Positions 2-12,881 of a DNA stretch of 13,033 bases are shown piece after piece. Origin of the DNA: Syntrophobacteraceae bacterium (GTDB lineage: Bacteria; Desulfobacterota; Syntrophobacteria; Syntrophobacterales; Syntrophobacteraceae); the NCBI GenBank assembly GCA_003165235.1, contig PLSV01000176.1, positions 1 through 13,033 on the forward strand, given 5' to 3'. The notes beneath the pieces are model-generated. The model saw only the letters and a program-made list of their open reading frames with translations, made no database searches and was not told the origin of the DNA. The position numbers and the translations under genes are program-made. The number at the start of each line of letters is the position of its first letter. Positions within the stretch are counted from its first letter, which is position 1.

Positions 2-502
2 AATGATGATCTGGCAATGGCCGGCATGGTTAGCAAGGAGACAATCGATTTTTTGACTCGAAAGATCCGGGCGGTTGAGTCAATGGTTGAACAAAAAGTT
101 CAGCTTAAGGACCAGTATCGTTATCTACTGACAATTCCCGGTATCGGAAAGATCCTGGCTCTTACCATCATGTTGGAGACCGGTCCGATCAGCCGTTTTG
201 CGAAAGTGGGAAACTACGTATCCTATTGCCGTAAAGTCAGTTCCAAATGGACAAGCAACGACAAAGCAAAGGGTAAGGGGAACAAAAAGAACGGCAATAA
301 GTATCTTGCCTGGGCCTTTTCTGAAGCAGCCGAACTGGCAAGACGCTTTGACACACAGTGCAGGGGCTATTACAACCGTAAGATGCAGAAAACGAATTTC
401 ATGGTCGCCCATCAGGCTCTTGCCCACAAACTAGCCAGGGCAGCATACTGCATCATAAAGGAGGAAGTTCCCTTTGTTCCTGGGAAAGTATTTGCGTGCT
501 GA
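2..502 (+). CDS. IS110-family transposase, C-terminal part (5' end lies outside the window)
   Basis: The frame is open from base 2, so the listed M at 17 is internal. The translation carries the Transposase_20-type signature LLTIPGIGKILALTIMLETGPISRF, followed by KKNGNKYLAWAFSEAA and AHKLARAAY. The stop is TGA at 500-502. Confidence 0.9.
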   Translation, partial: NDDLAMAGMVSKETIDFLTRKIRAVESMVEQKVQLKDQYRYLLTIPGIGKILALTIMLETGPISRFAKVGNYVSYCRKVSSKWTSNDKAKGKGNKKNGNKYLAWAFSEAAELARRFDTQCRGYYNRKMQKTNFMVAHQALAHKLARAAYCIIKEEVPFVPGKVFAC

Positions 503-860: not shown

Positions 861-1294
861 AAAAACCACGAGGTTTGATTGGAAAGCCGTTCCACCCAGC
901 ACATTTTTAGCCATCATCATCTTTACTGCCCATGTCATGAGCCAGTCAAGGGGTGGCTAACAACCATGAGAATTGACCAATCCATTTGGACGTGGCATGG
1001 AACCGAAGATTTTCTGGCCCGCCGGCCGGCGGGAAGGGTTGTTTGGCAGATGTTGTCGAACGGCCTTAATCCTGATGGGTGACTGGTGCAGTGAATGCTG
1101 ACGCCAAAAATAAGGAAACTGCGGAAGTAGTGGGGTGTTGCCGGCTAATGTGATTCAGCAGGAAAGATCACTGTCGCCGCCGTCAATCGGTTGGCTAAAC
1201 GTGACCTCAGTTTCCGAGAGTTCGCTTTCATTAAAGAAGCATCTCGGAAAAAAGGTGTTTTTCCTGCGAGGGGGGAGTTTTTGCTCTTGACCGC

Positions 1295-1322
1295 TGCCTT
1301 TTAATGGGTGCCTTTTAATGGG
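1295..1322. repeat. Perfect tandem duplication, 2 x 14 bp (TGCCTTTTAATGGG)
   Basis: Read directly from the sequence: 1295-1308 and 1309-1322 are identical. Confidence 0.9.
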
Positions 1323-1673
1323 TGACCCCTCTCTTCTATTCCCAGATCATATGTGGGAATTTGCCTCTGTAGTTGGTCTTCTGAATCCCAGCTGCTGGAA
1401 ATCCCTGTCCGGTGAAATTGAACCCTTTTGCCAAAGGCCTGTCAGATCAACGCATGGCTACTGAAAATGCAGAAACCAGGTCCAGATCTGACACCTCCCC
1501 CCAAAAGCTCCGATTTTTATTGCTGACATAGAACTTTCAGGCAGTTGGATTAAGGAAATTACCTATCGTGGGTCTCCCGAGTAAAATATGATCCTGGAAT
1601 GAGAATCCCTGAGACGAGCCCATCAGATCGAGAGCCGAGTAGTGTGGAGTGTTGAGGGTGCTTAACCCATGCG

Positions 1674-2429
1674 TCATTTCGCCCAGCTTTGATATCTGCG
1701 AAGCTTTCCAATATCGGAGAGGATATCCTCTATAGAAAAATTCTGCAGCAGCACGTCTTTATATTTCTCTGTCAATTCCTCGATTTCCTGCAACCTTTTT
1801 TCGGGATCTTCTTTTTCCCAGTATCGGTTGAGTTCGTGGAAGAAGGCATCGCCGTCATGAACATTCACGTCAATGATGGTCTTCTCTTCCCCGCTCCAGC
1901 CATAAAGATATTTTTCTACCTCTCTGCGATCTTGTTGAGGTGCGTCAGATGTGAACCATAGCGTCCGGTACTCCCCATAAACGTCAGCCGGAAAATATTG
2001 AGGTCCGCTCTCTACTAAAGAAAGGCGCCCCCCTGCCAGCAGTCCTTGTGCCTCGAATAGGATGCCAAACTTGCTTGGCAAGAGCTCACGATATGCCTCT
2101 GCGAATTTGTGGTCGAGAATTTGCAATTCATGCATCAGGTCGAAAGTTAGAGTCTCCATTACTTCAAGGTTTGACGCCTGAAGCTCAAGCAGATAAATGA
2201 TACGGTCTGGGTGTAAGGAAAAGTGATGCCGATCTTCAGCACGCTGATGGCTGGCGAGAGCTGTTTTGAGCTCATCAAGAAGGACACGATAGAGTTCGAT
2301 TATCTCATATGACTTCACGAGAATTAAATGTAACCGCGCTGCGACCATCCGGTTCTTGCGTTTTCGGAGCATCTCAGCAATCGCCAGGAAATCTATTTTC
2401 TTTAGGAAAAATTTGAATAGTTCAAGCAT
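1674..2429 (-). CDS. Hypothetical protein (251 aa), downstream partner of the DUF2779 nuclease gene
   Basis: This long ORF has an ATG start preceded by GAAGGGG about 8 nt upstream. It starts 21 nt after the upstream gene's TGA stop, which implies co-transcription. I recognised no family motif. The N-terminal half looks helical. Confidence 0.75.
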   Translation of the reverse strand: MLELFKFFLKKIDFLAIAEMLRKRKNRMVAARLHLILVKSYEIIELYRVLLDELKTALASHQRAEDRHHFSLHPDRIIYLLELQASNLEVMETLTFDLMHELQILDHKFAEAYRELLPSKFGILFEAQGLLAGGRLSLVESGPQYFPADVYGEYRTLWFTSDAPQQDRREVEKYLYGWSGEEKTIIDVNVHDGDAFFHELNRYWEKEDPEKRLQEIEELTEKYKDVLLQNFSIEDILSDIGKLRRYQSWAK

Positions 2430-2450
2430 CGTATCTGCCCCTTCTCCCCA

Positions 2451-3938
2451 TCATCCCTCCTGAAAGAATTTAACCAGCCTCACAATGGCCAGAGTGTCCA
2501 GCTTGCAGTATTCAAGCATTTGCCTGGCTAATTCCCGTTTCCTGATTTCATCGGTTTCGGGATCGATTGCCTCCATGTAAGCCATTTGAGCGTCGGTTCC
2601 GTCTTGAACCTCCTCAATGCTGGCATAATCGAGGTCAGGGGCAATCGTAGGGAGTACGGCTTTGATGGACCAGGACCCCTTCATTTTCGGATGATAATAG
2701 TGTTCTCTGGCCAGCGGCAGAAGGTCAACCAAACGGTCGATCACTTTTTGAATCTTTTGCGCCTGATTTGTGTACATCTCTGCGAGTTGCCCCAATATGG
2801 TCCGTTCGAAATGGCTGTAAACAAAGATTGGGCCATTCTGACTTAGACAGCCCAGAAGCTCCCCTATGAAATCAGTCAAAGGTGATTGCCCTGTGGTATC
2901 GAGAAATTCCTTATGCCGCAATTCGCCTGGCTTCGGTTCAATATGGCATGACCACTGAAAAGGGAGCTGTTGATATGGTCGAGTGCCCTTCCAGATTGGG
3001 ACGGCAAATTGAATAGTTTCAAAATCCAGATAATACCTGGGATAGCCCAGCCGCCGCAGAGACTGGCCAGCGTCCTTGTTCAATTCAGGACTGTTCCTAA
3101 CGGTAACTCGACGAATACGCTTATGAACATCGCTCTTAAGGCGACCTTCCGGAATGTCTCGGATATCTATTATGCCCTCTTCCAGCAGTTCCTTTACAAT
3201 CTTTCCTCCTCTGGGTAAGCAAGACACAGGGAATTCCGGTAAATTTGCCGAAGGGGAACAGTATTCTCGAAAGGGGCACTCGAAGGGGTTCTTGCAGTGG
3301 GCGCCGGTTCCAATTTCAGGTTCATCACTGTCAAGCACCTTTTTCAGTTTGACAATCCTGTCTGGAATCTCAGCCATGTATCCCTGGATTGAATCCATTA
3401 CGTCTTCCTGGTGGAAAAGGCCATCGTAGTCATCATTTCCTTGATAGACAAAACTGTTGTCTATGTGCGCAATTATTACGTTTTCCAGGGGATATCCGGC
3501 ATCCTCGATCACCCATGATTGAATCGCACAATCCCAAAGATGATAGTCTTCGACTTTGGTTGAGGATTTAACCTCAATCAGTTTATAACCATTCCTAACC
3601 TTTAGGAAGATGTCACTTCTGACTAACACGTCTGAGCTGGTAAATGCTCCTTCAAAAATCGGCTCTCTGGCTTCTTGGGCGAGCAAACTACGCGTTTTTT
3701 TTACTGCACGGGACAGGTCATCTTGATATTCAACCATTACCCCATCAGGATAGAGTGTCCTTGCGACTTTGGCCACCTGGTGACCCGTCTTAATCCTGGT
3801 ATCGGCTGCATCGTTCTGTTCTGCGAGTTTGGGAAAGTGCACTTCGAGGAAAAGCCGTTTTGGACACTGAATTCCCGAGAGCAATCTGGACTTTGAAAAA
3901 AGATGCCCTGTTTTCTTGATCTCAGTGGAATCGCTCAT
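2451..3938 (-). CDS. DUF2779-type nuclease: N-terminal Cas4/RecB-like PD-(D/E)xK domain with a 4-Cys cluster, C-terminal RNase H-fold DEDD-like exonuclease
   Basis: The 495-aa ORF has AAGGAG 9 nt upstream of its ATG. Motifs seen: an early Cys in GIQCPKRLFL; D...IEVKSS (ExK); HCKNPFECPFREYC (three more Cys); YYLDFETIQF (the DxE signature typical of DUF2779); YSHFERTIL; and YCKLDTLAIV. Confidence 0.88.
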   Translation of the reverse strand: MSDSTEIKKTGHLFSKSRLLSGIQCPKRLFLEVHFPKLAEQNDAADTRIKTGHQVAKVARTLYPDGVMVEYQDDLSRAVKKTRSLLAQEAREPIFEGAFTSSDVLVRSDIFLKVRNGYKLIEVKSSTKVEDYHLWDCAIQSWVIEDAGYPLENVIIAHIDNSFVYQGNDDYDGLFHQEDVMDSIQGYMAEIPDRIVKLKKVLDSDEPEIGTGAHCKNPFECPFREYCSPSANLPEFPVSCLPRGGKIVKELLEEGIIDIRDIPEGRLKSDVHKRIRRVTVRNSPELNKDAGQSLRRLGYPRYYLDFETIQFAVPIWKGTRPYQQLPFQWSCHIEPKPGELRHKEFLDTTGQSPLTDFIGELLGCLSQNGPIFVYSHFERTILGQLAEMYTNQAQKIQKVIDRLVDLLPLAREHYYHPKMKGSWSIKAVLPTIAPDLDYASIEEVQDGTDAQMAYMEAIDPETDEIRKRELARQMLEYCKLDTLAIVRLVKFFQEG

Positions 3939-4019
3939 CCGTCTTAGCTCCTTGCAGTGGCCCTCACTTAGAGTATTATCCTACAGTCTCAGCTTACTCT
4001 TAGATCAGGATTGCGCGTG

Positions 4020-4047
4020 CTTTGACACACCAGACAACATGTCAAAG
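4020..4047. promoter_or_regulatory. Perfect 8-bp inverted repeat (CTTTGACA N12 TGTCAAAG) in the intergenic region upstream of the DUF2779 operon
   Basis: 4020-4027 is the reverse complement of 4040-4047. The repeat lies between the end of the small membrane gene (4104) and the DUF2779 start (3938). It could be an operator or a hairpin, and its function is not established. Confidence 0.3.
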
Positions 4048-4103
4048 TGAATTTTTGTTCGTTTGAATTCTATCCTGATATTTCGAGAAGTCCAATTTCA
4101 CTC

Positions 4104-4436
4104 CTATTCTTTTAAACTAATGTATCTAGCGCTGTTCGCTGGCGATTTACTCATTCTTAAATTGCAAACTTCACAACGCTTTGGATAAAACCAGAGAAAT
4201 ATAATCCACGTACAGCTTGTAGCTAATACCATAACAAGTGTTAGTACCCTCCACTTCTTTTTAAACCAAGCCCATTTATTACAATTAATGCATGGCCATT
4301 TGATTTTATATCGCAAACTGTCCGATATCCTATATCGAAGTTTGTATCCACCTTTTTTCCCGCCGAAAATAGCAGCAAGTAGGAAAAAGATTAATAATAT
4401 TAGAATGGGAAATGCACCTCCACCACTTGCATACAT
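4104..4436 (-). CDS. Small membrane protein (110 aa) with two predicted TM helices and two CxxC pairs
   Basis: A strong AAGGAG lies about 7-8 nt upstream of the ATG. Hydrophobic segments are FPILILLIFFLLAAIFGG and VLTLVMVLATSCTWIIFLWF. The Cys pairs are CINC and CEVC. The stop is TAG. The local DNA is visibly AT-rich. Confidence 0.65.
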   Translation of the reverse strand: MYASGGGAFPILILLIFFLLAAIFGGKKGGYKLRYRISDSLRYKIKWPCINCNKWAWFKKKWRVLTLVMVLATSCTWIIFLWFYPKRCEVCNLRMSKSPANSARYISLKE

Positions 4437-4630
4437 CGTCGCTCTCCTTATCAGTCAAATAAGGCTTTTCAAGGTGGAAGGTAATTACTTCCGAATAATG
4501 CATCAACCTGACCACCAACGAATCTCGCAGGGCATTTTGGGTTCGTCTGCCGCCCTAAAAAGCTCTATGCCTTATGATAAGTGATTCGCATGAGGCAGAA
4601 GTGTTTGTTTTGTATAGCAAACTCCGCAGA

Positions 4631-5275
4631 TCAGACCAGTTCCTTGATCACCGGCCATACCTTGCTGCAGAATTCGATAAAATCCTTCCGAATGGATTGA
4701 AAAAAGTCCGGCTGTATCAAAGTAACTATTTCGATCCTCTTGCCTGTTTCAAAACCAAGGCAACCGTCAGAAACAAATTCATAGATTCGGCCTGAGATCT
4801 CAACCTGGCCATCACTATTCAACAACTCTTTGGTTCCTGCAATGACATCACACAGCGTCCTAAAATCAGGGTCGCGCTTTACATATGCTGAGTAGAGCCC
4901 CATTTTTGTCGTGGCCTTCGAGGCCCTCTTTTGGGTAACCCATATTGCGAAATAGCGTTTATTATTAATCTCCCAGTCGACCTCAGGGGATCCTTTAGTG
5001 GAATCATTAATAGAGATTTGCAATGGCGTGAATGGCAGATCGGTTGCTGAAATATGATCTTTAAGGTCATTCAAAAAGTTTACTGCAACATTGGGCCACC
5101 CTGCGCTCGCTTGCTCAACATGAAATGCCGCTTGTTGCAGTTGCGCCTTGGCAGTGTCAGCGCTTGTGCCTTTGGATATTTCCGATAATTGCTTTTCCAC
5201 CCGAGGCAATGGAGCATCTATATTTATTGCTGAAGAATCAATTCTTAGAAAGTTGATAAGTTTATCTATAAACAC
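4631..5275 (-). CDS. Hypothetical 214-aa ORF; most likely the C-terminal continuation of the TIR-domain gene upstream (same frame, separated by one TAG)
   Basis: The listed start is GTG at 5275, and there is no Shine-Dalgarno sequence upstream. The frame stays open from 5275 up to the TAG at 5357-5359. The bridging peptide PNENELPDDIKNICKYNAVKYDHDYYGVFIDKLINFL looks like the usual end of a TIR_2 domain. Confidence 0.6.
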   Translation of the reverse strand: MFIDKLINFLRIDSSAINIDAPLPRVEKQLSEISKGTSADTAKAQLQQAAFHVEQASAGWPNVAVNFLNDLKDHISATDLPFTPLQISINDSTKGSPEVDWEINNKRYFAIWVTQKRASKATTKMGLYSAYVKRDPDFRTLCDVIAGTKELLNSDGQVEISGRIYEFVSDGCLGFETGKRIEIVTLIQPDFFQSIRKDFIEFCSKVWPVIKELV

Positions 5276-5356
5276 ACCATAATAATCATGATCATACTTA
5301 ACTGCATTATATTTACAAATGTTTTTAATATCATCAGGTAATTCATTTTCGTTAGG

Positions 5357-5659
5357 CTATTTAAATTCAGGAGCTAATATAGGGACTATGTTTTTATTCC
5401 TGCTTAATGCTAGAGCTATTTCTTGGCGAATCCAATCCATTTCACCTGCGCATCTATCCAAGTCTCCAGGCGTTAAAATTACGACAAAATGATCTGCTTC
5501 GTTAACACATTGCTGTAATTGCTCACCAAACTGAGAAGCGCCTAAATCGGCTACGTCCAAAAATGTCTTAATCCCACGATTACTTAATTCCATATGAACA
5601 AGCCGTGCTAACTGCTCTCCAGATCCGCGACGATAGCTGATGAAGACTTGGTATTTCAT
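5357..5659 (-). CDS. TIR-domain protein, N-terminal 100 aa, ending at an in-frame TAG inside the domain (probable disrupted gene)
   Basis: AAGGGG lies about 6 nt upstream of the ATG. TIR hallmarks are VFISYRR at the N-terminus, HFVVILTP, and DWIRQEIALAL, with candidate catalytic Glu at residue 80. The ORF stops before the last TIR helices. Confidence 0.85.
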   Translation of the reverse strand: MKYQVFISYRRGSGEQLARLVHMELSNRGIKTFLDVADLGASQFGEQLQQCVNEADHFVVILTPGDLDRCAGEMDWIRQEIALALSRNKNIVPILAPEFK

Positions 5660-5822
5660 GTGTCACCCCTTAAATGATGTTGTCTTTTTTACCCGCATTC
5701 TGGCCTAACTGAAGTTGAAATATATCATATCGGCACGCTATATAGTACCGATTTTCCCATACTAACGGAACCACGATGGTCCGTTGCCATTGCAACAGCA
5801 TGGATGTGGCCAGATGATGGGC

Positions 5823-7937
5823 TCATTTCTGGCGAAGCCATGAAGTTTGGCAAGGTATAGCATTTCCATTGAATCCAGCTTGAGGTATTGGAACAAGGCT
5901 CGCATTCGCTCCCACAAATTCCCTCTGTTTCCTCCAGCCGGGGCTGGCCACAAGATTCCTGATATTCTGTATCATGTCCTTATCCTTATTCTTTTCGCTT
6001 TCTGGAAGCTGCTCATAAGGAACGAGTAAAGGATGAATTTTTCTAGCGTCGTCTCTCTTCGGTCCGTAGCGCCATCCGTCCATGTGGCGTTCGGCCATCC
6101 AACGTCGGTGTTCCATCTCAGAAAGCTTCTCGAAAATTGTGGGATCGTTGACAGCCTGATCCAAGGGGGACAGATCCTCAGCATCACATCCGATGGTGCG
6201 AAGCTTGACAGACAAGTGGTCCGCCGACCAGCGGTTAGCGTCCTTCATGACCTCGTCCAGTTCCTCCCACAAAACCAGAGACTTATTCATTCTTTTGCCC
6301 TCAGGATAGAGCATCGGGTAAGCAGCCTCAAGTGAAAGTGCATTCAGACGAAGCAACTGTGACTGCTCCCTAATGGCTAGTTCCTGGAAAGTTTTGCCTC
6401 TCGGCAAACGGGTTGGGGCAATCAGCTTATTAAGCAGTGGCTTCAGAACGATTTTGTGCTTCTCCTGCAGACGGCCAAAAAAGTCGTGCGATTTCAGGGT
6501 ACGGTTGAGAGAGGGTATTGGGTCACGCTCGTCAAGGTGCGGAAGGCCGGAAATATCATGGGCAACGGCATGCACCAGTTCCAGCGGAGAGATCGTGGTG
6601 AAGTCATCTTTAGTAAAGGGGATTTGGGTATTGATGTATGCAGAATGGATGGTTTTGGCAAGTTCGTCTGTGACCTCTTCCATCATGACTTGGTAGCCGC
6701 AGGCATCGTCCAGGATGTTGAAGCTGTAGATATTTCGAACGGTTGTAAATTTCGCCTCCTCCCCCTCCATGAGCTTTGATAGAGAAGAGCGCATGCAAGC
6801 CACCACCGGAGTGGCGTCTGAACCGAGCATGGTGCGGACCCTCAGGGCGAGGGAAACACCGATTGAATCGTCATCAAGGGCAATGTAGACCGCCACGGGT
6901 TGACGATTGGGTGCGCCCATGATCTGCTCCGGCGAAGACAGGCATTCAGGGTCGCTATCCACAAAGCGGATTTCAACGTCTGGCACGATAAAGGAGGGGG
7001 GTGTTTTTCCGTCACCATAAACCGCAAGAAATTTCTCTGAGCTTCCCTTGATATTACGGTCAATGACGACAATTTCAAGCCGCCTCCACTCGGCGTAGTG
7101 CCCGACCCGTGCAGCCTGTTTAACGATGTTTTCGCCCATATTATCGAAGCCTATGACCACGATGGTGACGGTATCTCCGGAAAGATGTTGCTTGCGGGCA
7201 TAGAAGTCGGGGGGGTATTTTTCCATAATGACGCGGGCGGCAGTTTCGAAGACGTTGAAAATGCTGGCATCGAACTTTTCAGAGCTACTGGCAAACAGGT
7301 CGTGGCGGGCGAAGATGCTCCGCAGGCTGGAATTGGCTATATGGGTATAGCAGCGCAAATTGTTCGATTCTACCTTGCGGTCAGCCTCTGCCACATCTCT
7401 TCCTTCAAGGGTAATTTCGATGTTGGTCTGGTCATTACCAGTAATGGCAAACAGGAATTTGGCCTGGGCAGCATTTGCCGCCTCCAGCATTTTCCTGTCG
7501 GAGGCATCGCCGATCAGAACCAGCACACTACGATTCCGGCATCCGGCTATGTCGGGATGATCTTTTTGGGCCTCTATTACCACGCACCGGTATTTCTTTA
7601 CCACCAAGGTGTCAACCAGTCGCTTCCCTTTGTCACCAAGGCCGCAGATGATGACATGGCCAGTTGTCTGTCTCAGGCTGATTAAATCACACTTTGCCAG
7701 AATCTCCTTCCAGAAGGCTTTGAGTGAACCCAAGGCGGCGCCGCCTGCTCCAAGGAGCTTTGCAATCATGAAGAGGATTTTCTGTTGCTCCGGCATGCCG
7801 ACGATTATGAGAATCACACCGGCAACAACCAGCACTGCGGCAGTCAACAACATGCCGATTACCAGCCACAGCCACCAAGGGTACTTTCGTATCCAGCGGC
7901 CAAAAGCGGTATGTGGAGAGGCTATCTGTTTTTCCAT
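5823..7937 (-). CDS. Membrane-anchored protein with two TrkA-N/RCK-type Rossmann domains and a C-terminal RyR (ryanodine-receptor repeat) domain
   Basis: The 704-aa ORF has AAGGA 7 nt upstream of its ATG. The N-terminal TM segment is WWLWLVIGMLLTAAVLVVAGVILIIVG, followed by a second hydrophobic segment. The first Rossmann domain reads HVIICGLGDKGKRL...VVIE. A degenerate second one reads VTIVVIGFDNMGENI...VVIDRN. The RyR signature is EMEHRRWMAERHMDGWRYGPKRDDARKIHPLLVPYEQLPESEKNKDKD, at about nt 5946-6137. Confidence 0.9.
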   Translation of the reverse strand: MEKQIASPHTAFGRWIRKYPWWLWLVIGMLLTAAVLVVAGVILIIVGMPEQQKILFMIAKLLGAGGAALGSLKAFWKEILAKCDLISLRQTTGHVIICGLGDKGKRLVDTLVVKKYRCVVIEAQKDHPDIAGCRNRSVLVLIGDASDRKMLEAANAAQAKFLFAITGNDQTNIEITLEGRDVAEADRKVESNNLRCYTHIANSSLRSIFARHDLFASSSEKFDASIFNVFETAARVIMEKYPPDFYARKQHLSGDTVTIVVIGFDNMGENIVKQAARVGHYAEWRRLEIVVIDRNIKGSSEKFLAVYGDGKTPPSFIVPDVEIRFVDSDPECLSSPEQIMGAPNRQPVAVYIALDDDSIGVSLALRVRTMLGSDATPVVACMRSSLSKLMEGEEAKFTTVRNIYSFNILDDACGYQVMMEEVTDELAKTIHSAYINTQIPFTKDDFTTISPLELVHAVAHDISGLPHLDERDPIPSLNRTLKSHDFFGRLQEKHKIVLKPLLNKLIAPTRLPRGKTFQELAIREQSQLLRLNALSLEAAYPMLYPEGKRMNKSLVLWEELDEVMKDANRWSADHLSVKLRTIGCDAEDLSPLDQAVNDPTIFEKLSEMEHRRWMAERHMDGWRYGPKRDDARKIHPLLVPYEQLPESEKNKDKDMIQNIRNLVASPGWRKQREFVGANASLVPIPQAGFNGNAIPCQTSWLRQK

Positions 7938-8086
7938 AAGGCTATCCTTGTGTCACCTCGATGGGGTGCTCGCGGTACATCAGAACTCAGTCGCCGTTTT
8001 CGGCAAGAGCCACCTCGCCAAGCCTAAGCAAAATACCACGACTCCAGTTGCCGATCCATCATGGGAACAAACATGGCCGAATCAGC

Positions 8087-8264: not shown

Positions 8265-8810
8265 CTATACACCAATTCCTCTGCGCGACAGAGCCTTTTT
8301 CAGGTTAAAAACTCCCTCCTGGTCCGTGACCAAGGCTAACACCAATGGGGCTGCAAGCATGGCCAAAACTAGGCCGATTCGCCGGTTCGATGCCCGATTA
8401 CTGGCGGTTTTACCGGTCGGGGTGATGAATACTATGAAGCTGCAGATGAAAATGACCGCCATTGGCACTTTGGTGAGGAAGGCCAGCAAAGCGAGAAAGA
8501 AGTTGCCGTTGTCCTTTAAAGTACGTCCGAAAATCCAGACCAGAAGCCCATCTTCCATTGCAATAAACAGATACAAGACAAATTGACCTTCGCTTTTGTG
8601 CTCTGATGGGGAAGCCAACATACCCAGAAATAAGAAAAACACCGGAGTCAGCGAGGTCAGGAAGACAATAAAGAGATCGTTGTAATTCCTATAAATAATC
8701 GCCTTCTTCTTTAGTCCCATGACTATGCCGCAAACCACTACAGCAAGAAATAGAATCAGTGTGTACACACTAAACACATAATTCGTCCAAACCACGGGAA
8801 CTTCCTGCAC
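8265..8810 (-). CDS. Multi-pass membrane protein (181 aa, about 5 TM segments), function unknown
   Basis: The start is GTG, with AGGAGG 5 nt upstream. The ORF has repeated hydrophobic stretches (YTLILFLAVVVCGIVMGL, LTPVFFLFLGMLA, FFLALLAFLTKVPMAVIFICSFIVFI, IGLVLAMLAAPLVLALV). The stop is TAG. Confidence 0.8.
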   Translation of the reverse strand: MQEVPVVWTNYVFSVYTLILFLAVVVCGIVMGLKKKAIIYRNYNDLFIVFLTSLTPVFFLFLGMLASPSEHKSEGQFVLYLFIAMEDGLLVWIFGRTLKDNGNFFLALLAFLTKVPMAVIFICSFIVFITPTGKTASNRASNRRIGLVLAMLAAPLVLALVTDQEGVFNLKKALSRRGIGV

Positions 8811-9316: not shown

Positions 9317-9832
9317 TTAGCCAGAGTTTCTAAAGGCAGTTGAAGTCATTTTAATTGCATCGAACAGTTTTCTACTCGCATCTAGAGCTTTATCTGCATT
9401 TAACTGGTGCCCCAGCCACCGCAGAACTAAGCCGTCCTCGCCATCAGAGAGGGAAGAAACCTCCAGTAAGCCACGTTCAACAGAAGCCTCTCTCCCCTGT
9501 TCGATCGCGTAGTCGTCTATGTGCTCCGCCACATCACGCATTTTTTTCAAGTCCGGCAAAGCTGAGTCGAATTCCTTTAAGGCAGTTTCAACTTCCGACA
9601 TAATCGCGGGAATATTGGCTGCTAATTTGGCTGCACTACGAAATCGGGTCAGGGCGACAATCAGGAAATTGAAGTCCACGCATTTTCTCAATACAAAGCC
9701 GTCGTCTTCTGGTTCTGAGGATCGCAGGCTACAGCATTGAAGGCTAATTGACCATAACGACAGGTTTGTAAGCCTTCTAGCCCTCTCGTATGTTGCCACT
9801 GCTGTAGTTTTGATTTTAGTAGTCATGGCCAC
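9317..9832 (-). CDS. Hypothetical protein (about 169-171 aa) with an R-x4-H motif (KKMRDVAEHIDDY); possibly HEPN-like
   Basis: The ORF lies 86 nt downstream of the SEC-C gene on the same strand. The listed start is GTG at 9832, but the ATG at 9826 is the more likely start. No clear Shine-Dalgarno sequence is present. The HEPN idea rests only on the RDVAEH motif and the helical character. Confidence 0.6.
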   Translation of the reverse strand: MAMTTKIKTTAVATYERARRLTNLSLWSISLQCCSLRSSEPEDDGFVLRKCVDFNFLIVALTRFRSAAKLAANIPAIMSEVETALKEFDSALPDLKKMRDVAEHIDDYAIEQGREASVERGLLEVSSLSDGEDGLVLRWLGHQLNADKALDASRKLFDAIKMTSTAFRNSG

Positions 9833-9918: not shown

Positions 9919-10872
9919 CTATTTTCCACAGCATTTCTTGAATTTCTTTTTACTCCCACAAGGGCATGTCTCGTTACGACCTACTTTTCTTTCTTTTTCC
10001 GGGCTCTCATGGGTACTTGGCATTGGTGTATTTTGGGTACAGTCTGATTTCGGTTCGTGGGTTTTTAGTTTGTGTTCGTAGATGACATTTCGATCTGCTT
10101 GCGATATTTTCTGTGAAATGTCGGGGAAAAAAACGATTAGCTCTCTTATCCCTCGTAAAACGTACATACGAACATCGTCTAGTATCAGGCAGATGTATCT
10201 ACGCTCAACGGGATTTTCGAGTCCTCGCCCTCGTCCCTTGTCTCCGGAACGGTAAAAACCTAAGGGCAAAGTATGTACCTGTGCCGATAAAAACTCGTAC
10301 ACGAAACGGAATGTATTTGGATTCTCCCCCATCCGCCCGATCAGTTCGTCCTGGCTATGGAGGTAGTGGTTGTTGCCCTTCAACAGTTCCTTTCGTTTCT
10401 TCTCTGGTAAGGAGAGGAAATGATGATTTTTTAAAAGTCGCCCGCGCAACTCCTGCGCTTGTTTCTCGAACCCTTCGACCTGCTCACATGAGCCGAGCCT
10501 CTCGAACATTTTTTTACGAGCCATGCAGTCATGCAGGTTGAACAGATTCCATCGGCAACCCCATTCATTAGGGGATACCCTATCGACACACAAGTAGAAG
10601 AAAGCAAGGTAGCACTCGATTAAGTTCCGAGCTAAGGATGCTACTGCGGCGAAGTCCCAATGTTCAATTCTCGCTTTAACCCAGCGGTTTCGCGGGAGCA
10701 TAAAGAGTAGGCTCATACCAGTACAGCACAGTCTTGTGAAAAGGATCGATGCCCAATAGTGGCGAGATGACGGAGAGGGACGATTTGCAGCTGCTTGGGA
10801 AGCTGCTGTGGCTATGGAAACAACTCTGTCGTATTCCTCTAAACAGGATTCATATGAGTCGGGTTGATCCAT
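9919..10872 (-). CDS. SEC-C motif protein (317 aa): helical N-terminal domain of unknown function plus a C-terminal CPCGSKKKFKKCCG zinc-binding tail
   Basis: The C-terminus TCPCGSKKKFKKCCGK is the canonical SEC-C metal-binding motif. The N-terminal segment LARNLIECYLAFFYLCVD is reminiscent of DUF5677/AbiV-like helical domains, but I have not verified this. AGGAGG lies 15 nt upstream of the ATG. The stop is TAG. Confidence 0.85.
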   Translation of the reverse strand: MDQPDSYESCLEEYDRVVSIATAASQAAANRPSPSSRHYWASILFTRLCCTGMSLLFMLPRNRWVKARIEHWDFAAVASLARNLIECYLAFFYLCVDRVSPNEWGCRWNLFNLHDCMARKKMFERLGSCEQVEGFEKQAQELRGRLLKNHHFLSLPEKKRKELLKGNNHYLHSQDELIGRMGENPNTFRFVYEFLSAQVHTLPLGFYRSGDKGRGRGLENPVERRYICLILDDVRMYVLRGIRELIVFFPDISQKISQADRNVIYEHKLKTHEPKSDCTQNTPMPSTHESPEKERKVGRNETCPCGSKKKFKKCCGK

Positions 10873-10881
10873 GAAAGATTT

Positions 10882-11073
10882 TCAATTCCTCCTAAACTGG
10901 ACAGTACAACAAAGTGTCCCGTTAATGAATCCCATTTCCCAAGGACTCGGAGCCGCCAAAGCCCTGTAAAGCGTTCGCCGCAAGACGTTGAGCGATCGAG
11001 CCACATCGTCGGAGCCCTCCATCAGTTCTGTGAGCACCCGAAAACTCGTGAAACACCCCAAAAAGCCATACAA
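10882..11073 (-). CDS. Possible small helix-turn-helix protein (63 aa or shorter), immediately upstream of the SEC-C gene
   Basis: The segment DDVARSLNVLRRTLYRALAAPSPWEMG resembles excisionase/AlpA or Fis-type HTH motifs (the ..RRTLYR.. pattern). The stop lies 9 nt before the SEC-C ATG. The start is a weak TTG with a poorly spaced SD, so this may not be a real gene. Confidence 0.3.
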   Translation of the reverse strand: MYGFLGCFTSFRVLTELMEGSDDVARSLNVLRRTLYRALAAPSPWEMGFINGTLCCTVQFRRN

Positions 11074-11903
11074 TTATCCTTTATCACGATCAAACACGCA
11101 AGGAATATACCGGTAGGCGGTTTGGGTACTCCATTTCTGGAGGCGATAGCTCTTGGGCTCAAAGCTGGCTTGATATGCAAGGACACTCTTTCAATTGGTT
11201 GCTGGATAAAAGAGTGGAAAGGTGCATCGGGTAAGGGTTGGGGCTGGAATGAAAAGCTTCAAGCGGGATATGATAGCCGAAATTGGGTCTGACCGAATAA
11301 AGTTCCTGTTATTATAGATAAAGGCGAGATACCATTATTAGTAAGTATCCGGAATCATTAGGGCAGTATCTCAATTTTGCCCTTATTTTCGAACAATTTG
11401 CCGTCACGCGGTTGCCGAACGTCGCCGCGATCAGGTTGAGGCATCTGCAGTCTCGCAAAAAGCATTCCCGTTCATGATCCACCCTCATACCTCCTTGATG
11501 GTCTCCATCATCAATACCGCTTGGGCAAGCATAAAAACTAAACATGCCTCTCCTCATCTTTGAAAAATGGGGGTGTGGAAAAACACAACCTCTCCGGATC
11601 ATACTGCAAAATTCTCTGGGTTGAAGTATCTGGAGATGGAGGCTGAACTCTCAGCGATAAAAAGCTGCCAAGTCCATTGTGCTTTACCACCTCCCGTGAA
11701 AGAAAGGGATCAGGCCTTGAAAAAGGAAAAATGGGTGAGGTGGAACGTCATAAAACACTTGAGCGAAATGATGGCGAGCGTCTCGCTGGAGAATAGACTC
11801 CAGAGAGGTCATTTGCCATCTTGAGTGCAGGCTGGTCGAGCGGTTTTAAAAATTTACAAATTCCTTTTTCAACGCCTGACCCCTTGTTTCATTCCCGTCA
11901 TTC

Positions 11904-11929
11904 CCACATTAATTCCCGCATTAATGTGG
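11904..11929. repeat. Perfect 10-bp inverted repeat (CCACATTAAT N6 ATTAATGTGG), preceded by three ATTCCC copies
   Basis: 11904-11913 is the reverse complement of 11920-11929. ATTCCC occurs at 11891, 11900 and 11912. Confidence 0.85.
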
Positions 11930-12443
11930 TGTTACCCCTTTTCGTATGCCCGCCGCCACTTGGCGTCCCGGTCCGGAGCGTACGCGGTGTCGGGCACAGC
12001 ATTCCACTCACGTTGCCCAATTGAAGCCCGGATGTTTATTTGAGCAGTGGCCCTCCGTCCCCCCTATGACAGACTTGTTAACAATACTAAACGATCATTT
12101 GCTGAAACGCTCTCGCGGACATCCCTTAGCGAGGTACTTCGCGTAGCGCGGAAGGCGACCGCTCGATGTGTCTATCATCCGCTCTGGGCGTGCGCGGGAT
12201 GCCTTCTGTGCGGAATTCCTCGATTCGTTTTAATCCCCGGGTCCCCAAATTCGCAATTCCTCAATTCTTACACCTATCAATTCCGGGTCGGGCCACGCTA
12301 AATCGGCTCCAGCCAAAGATCGATATGTAAAAAAGAGCTGTTCTGGAGGCTTAGACCGTCGTTTTCGATAGCAAAATGGTCGCTCTAAGGGAGTAGCCTT
12401 TAAAAGGATTAGTTTACCCGATGAACCCTGCATTTGCCGTTTA

Positions 12444-12881
12444 TTACTGGTTCAAACTGCTAGGATTGACGACAAATCCCTCTTTGGTTGCCGCGGACTT
12501 CAAGCGGCCGTCAAAGCAGAGGATTGTCAATCTTTCGGGATCTTCCTGGGAACCCACCAAGGCAGCCCCCAATTGACACGCGTCAGCAGCCCGCAAAGAA
12601 TGAACCTCCAGAAGCCTTAAGGCCCTCGCACGCACTCTATCAACCGCTGTGACCTCGTCGGCCCTACTCACAATGCTTGCAAGACGTTCCTTGGCTTTCT
12701 CGAATTCCTCAGCGCCTATAAGCCCATCCCTTACTCTCCGGCACAATGCACTGACCACCTCAACGCGACTCAAGCACCAGATCAGCATTCTCGGGTCATC
12801 GGCTACCACTTTGATGCAATATTCAGTGTTTTCTTCATTGATGAGCAGGGGGACGATTGCCGAAGAATCCCAGAACTTCAT
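12444..12881 (-). CDS. vapC: PIN-domain toxin, VapC family (type II toxin-antitoxin)
   Basis: The N-terminus MKFWDSSAIVPLL carries the first PIN acidic residue. Later motifs are SRVEVVSAL and AADACQLGAAL. The ATG overlaps the upstream gene's stop in an ATGA junction. Its size, 145 aa, is typical for the family. Confidence 0.88.
   Translation of the reverse strand: MKFWDSSAIVPLLINEENTEYCIKVVADDPRMLIWCLSRVEVVSALCRRVRDGLIGAEEFEKAKERLASIVSRADEVTAVDRVRARALRLLEVHSLRAADACQLGAALVGSQEDPERLTILCFDGRLKSAATKEGFVVNPSSLNQ

Follow-up and report, generated by a model that had tools for sequence, protein, structure and literature searches.

The locus considered here raises the question of why a gene for a TIR-domain protein should stand directly beside a gene for a membrane protein of 704 amino acids (aa) that carries two Rossmann domains and an RyR repeat. 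Both genes lie in a 13,033-nt stretch of DNA from a Syntrophobacteraceae bacterium (contig PLSV01000176.1, assembly GCA_003165235.1), and this whole stretch is called the window below. A preliminary description, made from the letters of the DNA, had proposed a Thoeris-like pair in which the TIR protein makes a signal from NAD+ and the membrane protein senses it. Having compared the locus with its relatives, we lean, with modest confidence, towards the reading that what remains here is the decayed copy of an anti-phage signalling module, Thoeris-like and built on a TIR protein, and that the effector of this module, the membrane protein, is of a previously undescribed kind.

The RCK-RyR membrane protein and its candidate ligand pocket

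We start from the membrane protein, since it is the part of the locus that is intact. Its gene and domains are as follows, with the basis of each assignment in brackets.

5823..7937, minus strand: gene of the RCK-RyR membrane protein, intact, 704 aa; candidate signal-activated effector (open reading frame (ORF), Pfam, AlphaFold2 (AF2) model, Foldseek)
7710..7877, minus strand: N-terminal hairpin, two hydrophobic helices, aa 21-46 and 50-76, with a 3-residue loop (hydropathy, DSSP on the model)
7188..7658, minus strand: RCK1, a TrkA-N Rossmann domain, aa 94-250 (Pfam, conservation, Foldseek match to the KTN-NAD+ structure 1lss)
6717..7172, minus strand: RCK2, the second Rossmann domain, aa 256-407 (AF2 secondary structure, Foldseek tandem-RCK matches)
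5913..6140, minus strand: one RyR repeat, aa 600-675, predicted to receive a signal of the cyclic ADP-ribose type (Pfam RyR, PDB sequence matches, alignment with phage protein gp68)

The preliminary description had seen here a membrane-anchored protein with one canonical and one degenerate Rossmann domain and an RyR repeat, and Pfam, the AF2 model and Foldseek all agree with that picture. Pfam places TrkA_N at aa 95-185 (E 6.9e-19) and RyR (PF02026) at aa 600-669 (E 5.6e-18; 65.4 bits against a gathering score of 27.4), and the motifs GLGDKG...VVIE of RCK1 and GWRYGPKRDDARKIHPLLVPYEQLPESEKNKDKD of the RyR repeat are both found. The AF2 model (pLDDT 81, pTM 0.76, with 31 homologues in the input) gives the order of the parts: two long helices (aa 21-46 and 50-89), the tandem Rossmann/RCK pair (aa ~94-407), a helical region and the RyR repeat. 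The structure check that had been suggested, carried out with AF2 and Foldseek, shows a tandem RCK. The best Foldseek matches in the PDB are GsuK, the TrkA gating ring, KtrA and Slo1, all of them tandem-RCK proteins and all with probability 1.0; for 4j9v, 4g65 and 5but the TM-score normalised to the target is 0.48-0.75, and the matches to TrkA and GsuK span about 410-440 aligned columns.

The architecture is that of a large family. There are 34 close homologues, and a profile search of 1.84 billion representatives gives 2,695 wider-family clusters at 50% identity (E<=1e-30); TrkA_N and RyR are both present in 49 of 51 sampled members. Across the close-family and wider-family alignments the dinucleotide-binding signature of RCK1 (G99-L-G101-D-K-G104 with E122) stays intact, G99, G101, G104 and E122 being invariant or at least 90% conserved, and because this GxGxxG and its glutamate are kept, a second nucleotide site, for NAD(H) or an adenine nucleotide, is plausible in RCK1 besides the RyR repeat. 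The corresponding motif of RCK2 is degenerate (GFDNMG...VVID), with G263 and G268 invariant.

Is the protein simply a K+ channel or a TrkA orthologue? Both identities were considered and rejected: there is no selectivity filter, the family scores are below threshold and no TrkH/KtrB partner is present. A pore loop or filter is not found in the N-terminal hairpin; G[YF]G is absent from the window protein and occurs in one of the 34 close relatives, and T-x-G-[YF]-G occurs in none of the 51 wider-family members. In NCBIfam the protein scores 33 bits for TrkA (cut-off 289) and 27.8 bits for Kch (cut-off 425), and a TrkH/KtrB gene is seen in none of the locus listings inspected. With no filter and a Kch score about a tenth of the cut-off, the JGI label "voltage-gated potassium channel Kch" carried by homologues is unjustified.

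The next question is "what could the RyR repeat bind?" Phage proteins of the same family (PF02026) bind 2'cADPR, 3'cADPR and cADPR (cyclic ADP-ribose) with nanomolar affinity, as reported for the RyR Tad protein gp68 (doi 10.64898/2026.06.04.730250) and for sponge-type homologues of RyDEP (PMC13232231); RyDEP itself cleaves these signals, and its pocket holds linear ADP-ribose (ADPR) after cleavage (PMC13232231). The RyR domain in the window is 39% identical to gp68 (from NC_048653), and all six 3'cADPR-binding positions of the phage protein map onto it without a gap and with identical spacing: H129, W132, K147, H154, K170 and D171 correspond to H610, W613, R628, H635, K651 and D652, so that K147 is matched by an arginine. 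The H, W, H and D pocket residues of RyDEP are likewise spaced as in the window protein. H610, W613, H635, K651 and D652 are at least 90% conserved in the close family, and for H610 and W613 the conservation extends to the wider family. Matches to sequences in the PDB lead to RyR Repeat12 and to a Bacteroides RyR-like protein, with E down to 1.8e-32. Since all six ligand positions align and the pocket is conserved, the RyR domain is likely, on this residue evidence, the best candidate for a receptor of the TIR product. This changes the earlier picture in part. A TIR synthase paired with a nucleotide-sensing membrane effector is favoured by the gene linkage and by the pocket; the sensor, which had been placed on the Rossmann domains, fits the RyR residues better, and an RyR repeat that had been taken as a mere echo of the eukaryotic link becomes itself the leading receptor candidate.

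TIR partners and gene neighbourhoods

We turn to the TIR gene, which lies downstream of the RyR-protein gene on the same strand.

5660..5822, minus strand: 163 nt separating the RyR-protein gene from the TIR gene, with GGGG as ribosome-binding site ahead of the ATG of the latter
5357..5659, minus strand: first 100 codons of the TIR gene, among them that of the catalytic-type glutamate E80 at 5420-5422 (Pfam TIR_2, PADLOC)
5357..5359, minus strand: in-frame TAG at TIR codon 101 (reading frame, homologue alignment)
4631..5356, minus strand: remaining TIR frame, the last ~40 TIR residues and a ~200-aa C-terminal domain of unknown fold (read-through translation)

As had been described, the gene follows directly and retains its candidate catalytic glutamate. 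The ORF, 163 nt away, matches TIR_2 (E 9e-12) and, in PADLOC, ThsB and SAVED-TIR; E80 of the motif DWIRQEI is invariant in its own family and in all 13 partner TIRs that stand beside RyR proteins elsewhere.

Do the two genes travel together in other genomes? Co-localisation had been named beforehand as the finding on which the pairing could fall, and it is upheld in the relatives. A TIR_2 gene is directly adjacent, on the same strand, in all nine distinct flanked loci of the clade with 56-78% identity, with gaps of 18-160 nt or with overlapping genes. Both orders occur. A TIR of ~410-450 aa is encoded upstream of the RyR gene in six loci (L003, L007, L009, L010, L017, L021), and one of ~980 aa downstream of it in three (L001, L005, L013); the TIR is downstream in the window too, and the spacer of L001 (160 nt) is similar to that of the window. 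The two-gene cassettes are inserted among different housekeeping genes (purL/metallophosphatase, pyrG/M16 peptidase, ATP synthase/CoA ligase), and the three-gene loci lie beside GmrSD and toxin-antitoxin genes (PIN/MazE, HigB). Among the intact cassettes, the two-gene ones occupy 4752-8058 in L007, 4641-7989 in L010, 4623-8055 in L017 and 4653-8034 in L021, and the three-gene locus of L001 occupies 948-7960. By identity and tree the RyR proteins fall into groups that match the types of cassette; divergence is faster among the partner TIRs (60-84% identity) than among the RyR proteins (78-90%).

For the wider family, a census of 80 metagenome loci was made with local multi-seed hidden Markov model and phmmer searches. 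TIR or DUF4062, the latter reported as a TIR-like NADase (doi 10.64898/2026.05.01.722283), is found in 27 of these loci, and in 12 of the 21 whose flanks reach 3 kb or more on each side; in most cases the gene is co-directional and no more than 1 kb away. Among 76 same-strand immediate neighbours there are 17 RyR-domain, 10 AAA, 9 TIR_2 and 7 WD40 proteins, and the partner architectures include TIR-STAND-TPR, TIR-TPR, TIR-WD40, DUF4062-STAND-WD40 and an AAA protein of ~850 aa with an RyR domain. In the clade at 45% identity the neighbour is a SLOG-SLATT protein, joined in L019 by a DUF4062-STAND-WD40 giant; such a giant is also encoded upstream in the distant L016 (26% identity). An RCK homologue that has no RyR domain (P0033) sits in a housekeeping context with no TIR neighbour. 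Thoeris is reported in ~8% of genomes, and chance adjacency of a TIR gene to any given gene should therefore be well below 1%; judged in this way, without a formal background rate, TIR and RyR genes are co-localised far beyond chance.

Two further observations belong to these neighbourhoods. The gene of a protein of ~850-970 aa, which has an AAA ATPase in its centre and carries an RyR repeat of its own at the C-terminus, adjoins the RCK-RyR gene in ~24 of the 80 loci (L027-L030, L032, L034-L038, L049, L050, L059, L060, L076, L085, L089, L094-L096, L098, L102; for example L028:175-2703), so these loci hold two different RyR-domain proteins; the copy in L032 (4454-7375) has an N-terminal RelA_SpoT nucleotide-synthetase domain. 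An ADP-ribosylglycohydrolase gene (PF03747) is found at L019 1-39, immediately upstream of the DUF4062-STAND-WD40, RCK-RyR and SLOG-SLATT genes.

The relatives also reveal a third gene. SLOG-SLATT genes are co-operonic with the RyR gene in L001, L005, L013, L015, L019 and L036, and the proteins of ~600 aa that they encode begin with a SLOG-like (YAcAr) part and have membrane helices of SLATT type at the C-terminus. One remnant of this gene is left in the window:

7942..8043, minus strand: SLOG-SLATT remnant, the last 33 codons and the stop (tblastn 70% identity, E 4e-9; translation)

The remnant matches (tblastn) the upstream genes of L001, L005 and L013, of 615, 595 and 592 aa, and ends 4 nt before the ATG of the RyR gene, the same junction as in the relatives; an internal TGA at 7987-7989 replaces a conserved tryptophan. 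The place expected for the body of the gene is filled by a 181-aa multi-helix ORF (8265-8810, minus strand), predicted to be a small membrane protein, which matches no family. No remnant of the long TIR (~980 aa) that the relatives encode downstream is seen in the window, where the SLOG-SLATT tail alone is present. From these remains, the window locus is read as a decayed descendant of a three-gene arrangement (SLOG-SLATT, RCK-RyR, TIR) in which the gene of the RyR protein alone is intact. The two-gene module first proposed is thus right in its pairing of TIR and RyR and too short by one gene, the remnant at 7945-8043 (minus strand) having been overlooked.

There is also a structural concern, whether the TAG at codon 101 is the natural end of the TIR gene. 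Reading through it gives a 342-aa product whose frame ends at 4631. The position is phenylalanine in seven of eight TIR homologues (FKFP), and conservation goes on beyond it (P108, Y126), which points to a recent nonsense change or a sequence error. The ~200-aa C-terminal region behind it, presumed to be the sensor part of the protein, has no match in Pfam or NCBIfam; its sole relatives are on its own contig and in a 382-aa TIR of L005 (E 2e-25). A recoding of TAG as a sense codon was considered and rejected, for TAG ends the DUF5677/SEC-C gene of the window right after its terminal motif (...CCGK-TAG); two further called ORFs of unknown function in the window also terminate in TAG. A sequencing or assembly error is possible, the source being one 17-kb metagenome contig with other split genes. 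Two genes of this contig (ENA ERZ27254231, 17,160 bp) are in pieces (window 17-502, plus strand; L103 10892-11912 and 13466-15217): an IS110-family transposase, now two ORFs, and an aldehyde:ferredoxin oxidoreductase, of which AFOR_N (96 aa) and AFOR_C (293 aa) are separate. Several broken genes on one contig speak for genome decay or for assembly or consensus errors, and this bears on whether the TAG is real. With the TAG in the TIR gene and the SLOG-SLATT gene cut to 33 codons, the module in the window is probably inactive.

The remaining genes of the window are of mixed character. A 495-aa DUF2779 protein (2451-3938, minus strand) has Cas4-like PD-(D/E)XK nuclease matches in PADLOC and is followed after 22 nt by a gene for a 251-aa protein with no family match (1674-2429, minus strand); in L013 and L014 the SLOG-SLATT/RyR/TIR locus is immediately preceded by a 144-aa DUF2779 fragment. 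The DUF5677 protein with its C-terminal SEC-C zinc motif (9919-10872, minus strand) precedes a 171-aa ORF of unknown function (9317-9832, minus strand), and the two may form another small defence or toxin module; the PADLOC candidate models PDC-S12 and E2 match the SEC-C tail only. A PIN-domain (VapC-like) toxin gene lies at the edge of the window (12444-12881, minus strand), and a MazE/PIN pair also flanks L013. At 4104-4436 (minus strand), where the DNA is AT-rich (GC 37%), there is a predicted membrane ORF of 110 aa with two CxxC pairs and no family match. No convincing ORF, Rfam family or tRNA is seen in two stretches that each exceed 1 kb, 500-1670 and 10870-12440; the latter contains a 25-nt inverted repeat whose arms (11704-11728 and 11861-11885) are 92% complementary and lie 132 nt from each other. 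Scanning the window for Rfam families, tRNAs and repeats gives nothing relevant.

Proposed mechanism and rival explanations

Combining the domain order of the membrane protein with the gene linkage and the RyR pocket, we propose how an intact module of this family might work. The TIR_2 protein would be activated by infection through its variable C-terminal sensor region and would make from NAD+ a signal derived from ADP-ribose, a cADPR isomer being the likeliest form. This signal would bind the C-terminal RyR repeat of the membrane protein. RyR repeats function as two-fold dimers in the solved examples, and because they do, binding of the ligand should alter the oligomeric state or the conformation of the tandem-RCK assembly. 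The assembly would in turn pull on the N-terminal two-helix hairpin, and the resulting ion leak or depolarisation would lead to abortive infection. The GxGxxG...E site of RCK1 may provide a second input, for NAD(H) or an adenine nucleotide. What has been observed is the domain architecture, the linkage of the genes and the conserved pocket; the effector role, the nature of the signal and the defence phenotype are what we infer from them.

Several points weigh against the scheme. The membrane hairpin has no recognisable pore, and a plausible signal-activated pore is at hand in the SLOG-SLATT protein of the same operon (L001, L005, L013 and the 45% clade), so that the RyR protein need not be the killer in those loci. 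The RyR pocket includes the His/Asp dyad of the RyDEP glycosidase, and a degrading or buffering role is possible. About 40% of the well-flanked wider-family loci have no TIR or DUF4062 gene, the comparison of TIR adjacency with chance has no formal background rate behind it, and the count of nine in nine for the close clade is based on few, related metagenome loci. The copy in the window is broken, and a function in this organism can therefore not be read from it.

These points feed the main rival, which we consider unlikely. It makes the RCK-RyR protein a sink or regulator of the host's own signal: the RyR repeat would sequester or hydrolyse the TIR product and set the threshold of the system or reset it, and killing would be left to the SLOG-SLATT pore or to NAD+ depletion by the TIR. 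The co-operonic SLOG-SLATT genes of the six loci named above and the remnant in the window suit it well, as does the listing of "SLOG and 4TM" proteins among the putative Thoeris effectors of Yirmiya et al. (doi 10.64898/2025.12.03.692087); so does the state of the window, where the RyR gene alone is intact and the TIR and SLOG-SLATT genes have decayed. The six two-gene cassettes, however, hold neither SLOG-SLATT nor any other candidate effector, and a membrane-anchored tandem-RCK machine of ~700 aa appears too elaborate for a sponge. The conserved H610 and D652, equivalents of the RyDEP catalytic dyad, might seem to tell for hydrolysis, yet sponge-type phage RyR proteins share these residues without hydrolysing the signal (PMC13232231), and the residues are therefore no argument for it.

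Could the membrane protein instead report the loss of NAD+ itself? The TIR or DUF4062 protein would then be a plain NADase, and either RCK1 would respond to falling NAD(H) or the RyR repeat to rising ADPR, with a response at the membrane. The family-wide RCK1 signature is compatible with this, GsuK and KTN domains do bind NAD+, NADH or ADP (4gx2, 4gx1, 1lss), DUF4062 is reported to hydrolyse NAD+ to ADPR with no cyclic signals (doi 10.64898/2026.05.01.722283), and linear ADPR is retained in the RyDEP pocket after cleavage (PMC13232231). We nevertheless find the idea quite improbable: a second effector would be redundant where NAD+ loss already kills or arrests the cell, the RyR pocket matches that of proteins in which selection has favoured binding of cyclic isomers at nanomolar affinity, and the TIR_2 partners are ThsB-like in PADLOC and NCBIfam. 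Hardly any credence is left for the view that the two genes have no functional link and that the 704-aa protein is a housekeeping regulator of K+ transport or of a channel, stranded in a defence island beside an unrelated TIR pseudogene. It is true that TrkA_N domains typically belong to K+ transport, that a TIR is missing from some of the wider-family loci, and that the window has a mosaic make-up, in which broken genes stand together with a PIN gene and an IS110 fragment; but the filter is absent, the NCBIfam TrkA and Kch scores are far under their cut-offs, TrkH/KtrB appears in no locus listing, TIR adjacency is kept across genomic contexts and in both gene orders, and the housekeeping context belongs to the homologue that has no RyR domain. 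Our preference stays with a signal-activated RCK-RyR effector.

Known systems and meaning for the family

How does such an effector compare with what has been described? The closest systems are those of Thoeris, types I-XI (a ThsB TIR with ThsA/C/D/E/F-L; doi 10.64898/2025.12.03.692087). They share with the present loci the two-gene core, a TIR with its catalytic glutamate and an adjacent protein that joins a nucleotide-ligand domain, here a predicted one, to a putative membrane-acting part, as well as the variable TIR sensor regions, the mobile cassette and the defence-island neighbours; membrane-spanning effectors with a ligand domain are the rule in types II, V, VI, VII and X. The effector here differs, being a two-helix hairpin with a tandem RCK and an RyR repeat that no PADLOC or NCBIfam Thoeris model fits. 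The TIRs here are long multi-domain TIR_2 proteins (340-990 aa), and many loci add SLOG-SLATT, AAA-RyR or STAND proteins.

The preliminary description knew of no defence system with a TrkA-N/RyR effector, and none has come to light in PADLOC, in NCBIfam or in the available portions of the literature searched. PADLOC gives no match for the 704-aa protein, and NCBIfam gives sub-threshold TrkA and Kch only. The 2025 survey of TIR systems counts 29 putative effector classes, and a label naming RyR, TrkA or NAD-binding effectors is absent from those parts of its text and supplements that were at hand (doi 10.64898/2025.12.03.692087). In the literature searched, no paper connects TIR systems with RyR or TrkA proteins of the host, the two phage RyR papers (PMC13232231, doi 10.64898/2026.06.04.730250) do not discuss host RyR effectors, and the conflict-system surveys of the Aravind laboratory make no mention of an RCK-RyR effector. 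The "ion channel" effector of type X was sought through its TIR in plasmids, and the six loci inspected are all type II macro-domain systems. The RCK-RyR effector is thus new with respect to the Thoeris types as described in the accessible material, with an overlap possible for the type X "ion channel", to which no sequence comparison was made.

Three other groups of proteins share parts of the architecture. RyDEP (PMC13232231) and RyR Tad gp68 (doi 10.64898/2026.06.04.730250) belong to the same PF02026 family and share the six mapped ligand positions; they are soluble dimers of small size (~120-185 aa), encoded by viruses, which they serve by destroying or sequestering the signal, whereas here the repeat is part of a 704-aa host membrane protein beside a TIR. 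No relatives with the full RCK-RyR architecture were found in the 2.9 million viral contigs of IMG/VR, and the proteins sit on contigs of bacterial metagenome-assembled genomes. With the RCK/KTN-gated K+ systems (GsuK, TrkA/TrkH, KtrAB, Slo1) the protein shares the tandem-RCK fold and the dinucleotide motif of RCK1, and with GsuK also a fusion in which the RCK pair immediately follows two membrane helices. It differs from them in having no pore helix or filter and no TrkH/KtrB gene, and in its C-terminal helical region of ~190 aa with the RyR repeat; unlike the soluble TrkA and KtrA subunits, it has a membrane hairpin of its own. The SLOG-SLATT proteins and other nucleotide-activated two-helix membrane effectors, such as ThsH of type VII Thoeris (for the group see Burroughs et al. 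2015), likewise combine a cytoplasmic ligand domain with a small membrane hairpin and a co-operonic TIR. Here the sensor is RyR rather than SLOG and the transducer a tandem RCK, and the two proteins co-occur in several loci, so that one does not replace the other.

The comparison with Repeat12 of the eukaryotic ryanodine receptor has a wider bearing. The homology (E 1e-28 to 1e-32) and the pocket residues are shared, and in both cases the domain sits on a membrane machine, which for Repeat12 is ion-conducting; the protein here has a single repeat that must dimerise, and the rest of it is unrelated to the RyR channel. The link between cADPR and the ryanodine receptor in animals is unsettled. 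As a tentative and rather doubtful extension of our reading, host RyR repeats may be a widespread native receptor for TIR-made cyclic ADPR signals, with an RCK ring linking them, in the present proteins, to a membrane hairpin; the RyR sponges and glycosidases of phages may then be copies captured from the host.

TIR signalling with ADP-ribose-derived messengers is common to bacteria, plants and animals, and the bottleneck in its study is the knowledge of the receptors that read these messengers. Binding of 2'cADPR, 3'cADPR and cADPR by RyR domains was shown in mid-2026 for phage counter-defence proteins alone. If the proposal holds, the cellular RCK-RyR family would be the missing host side of this arms race and a new class of Thoeris-type effector. 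The more tentative extension would place it within a large family of multi-component systems (RCK-RyR, AAA-RyR, SLOG-SLATT, and TIR or DUF4062-STAND sensors). It would also amount to a prokaryotic pathway from a cADPR-type signal through an RyR domain to ion flux at a membrane, and so to a mechanistic and evolutionary antecedent for the disputed link in animals. With six intact two-gene cassettes identified, the RyR domain as a cADPR-type receptor coupled to ion flux becomes testable in a simple two-gene bacterial system.

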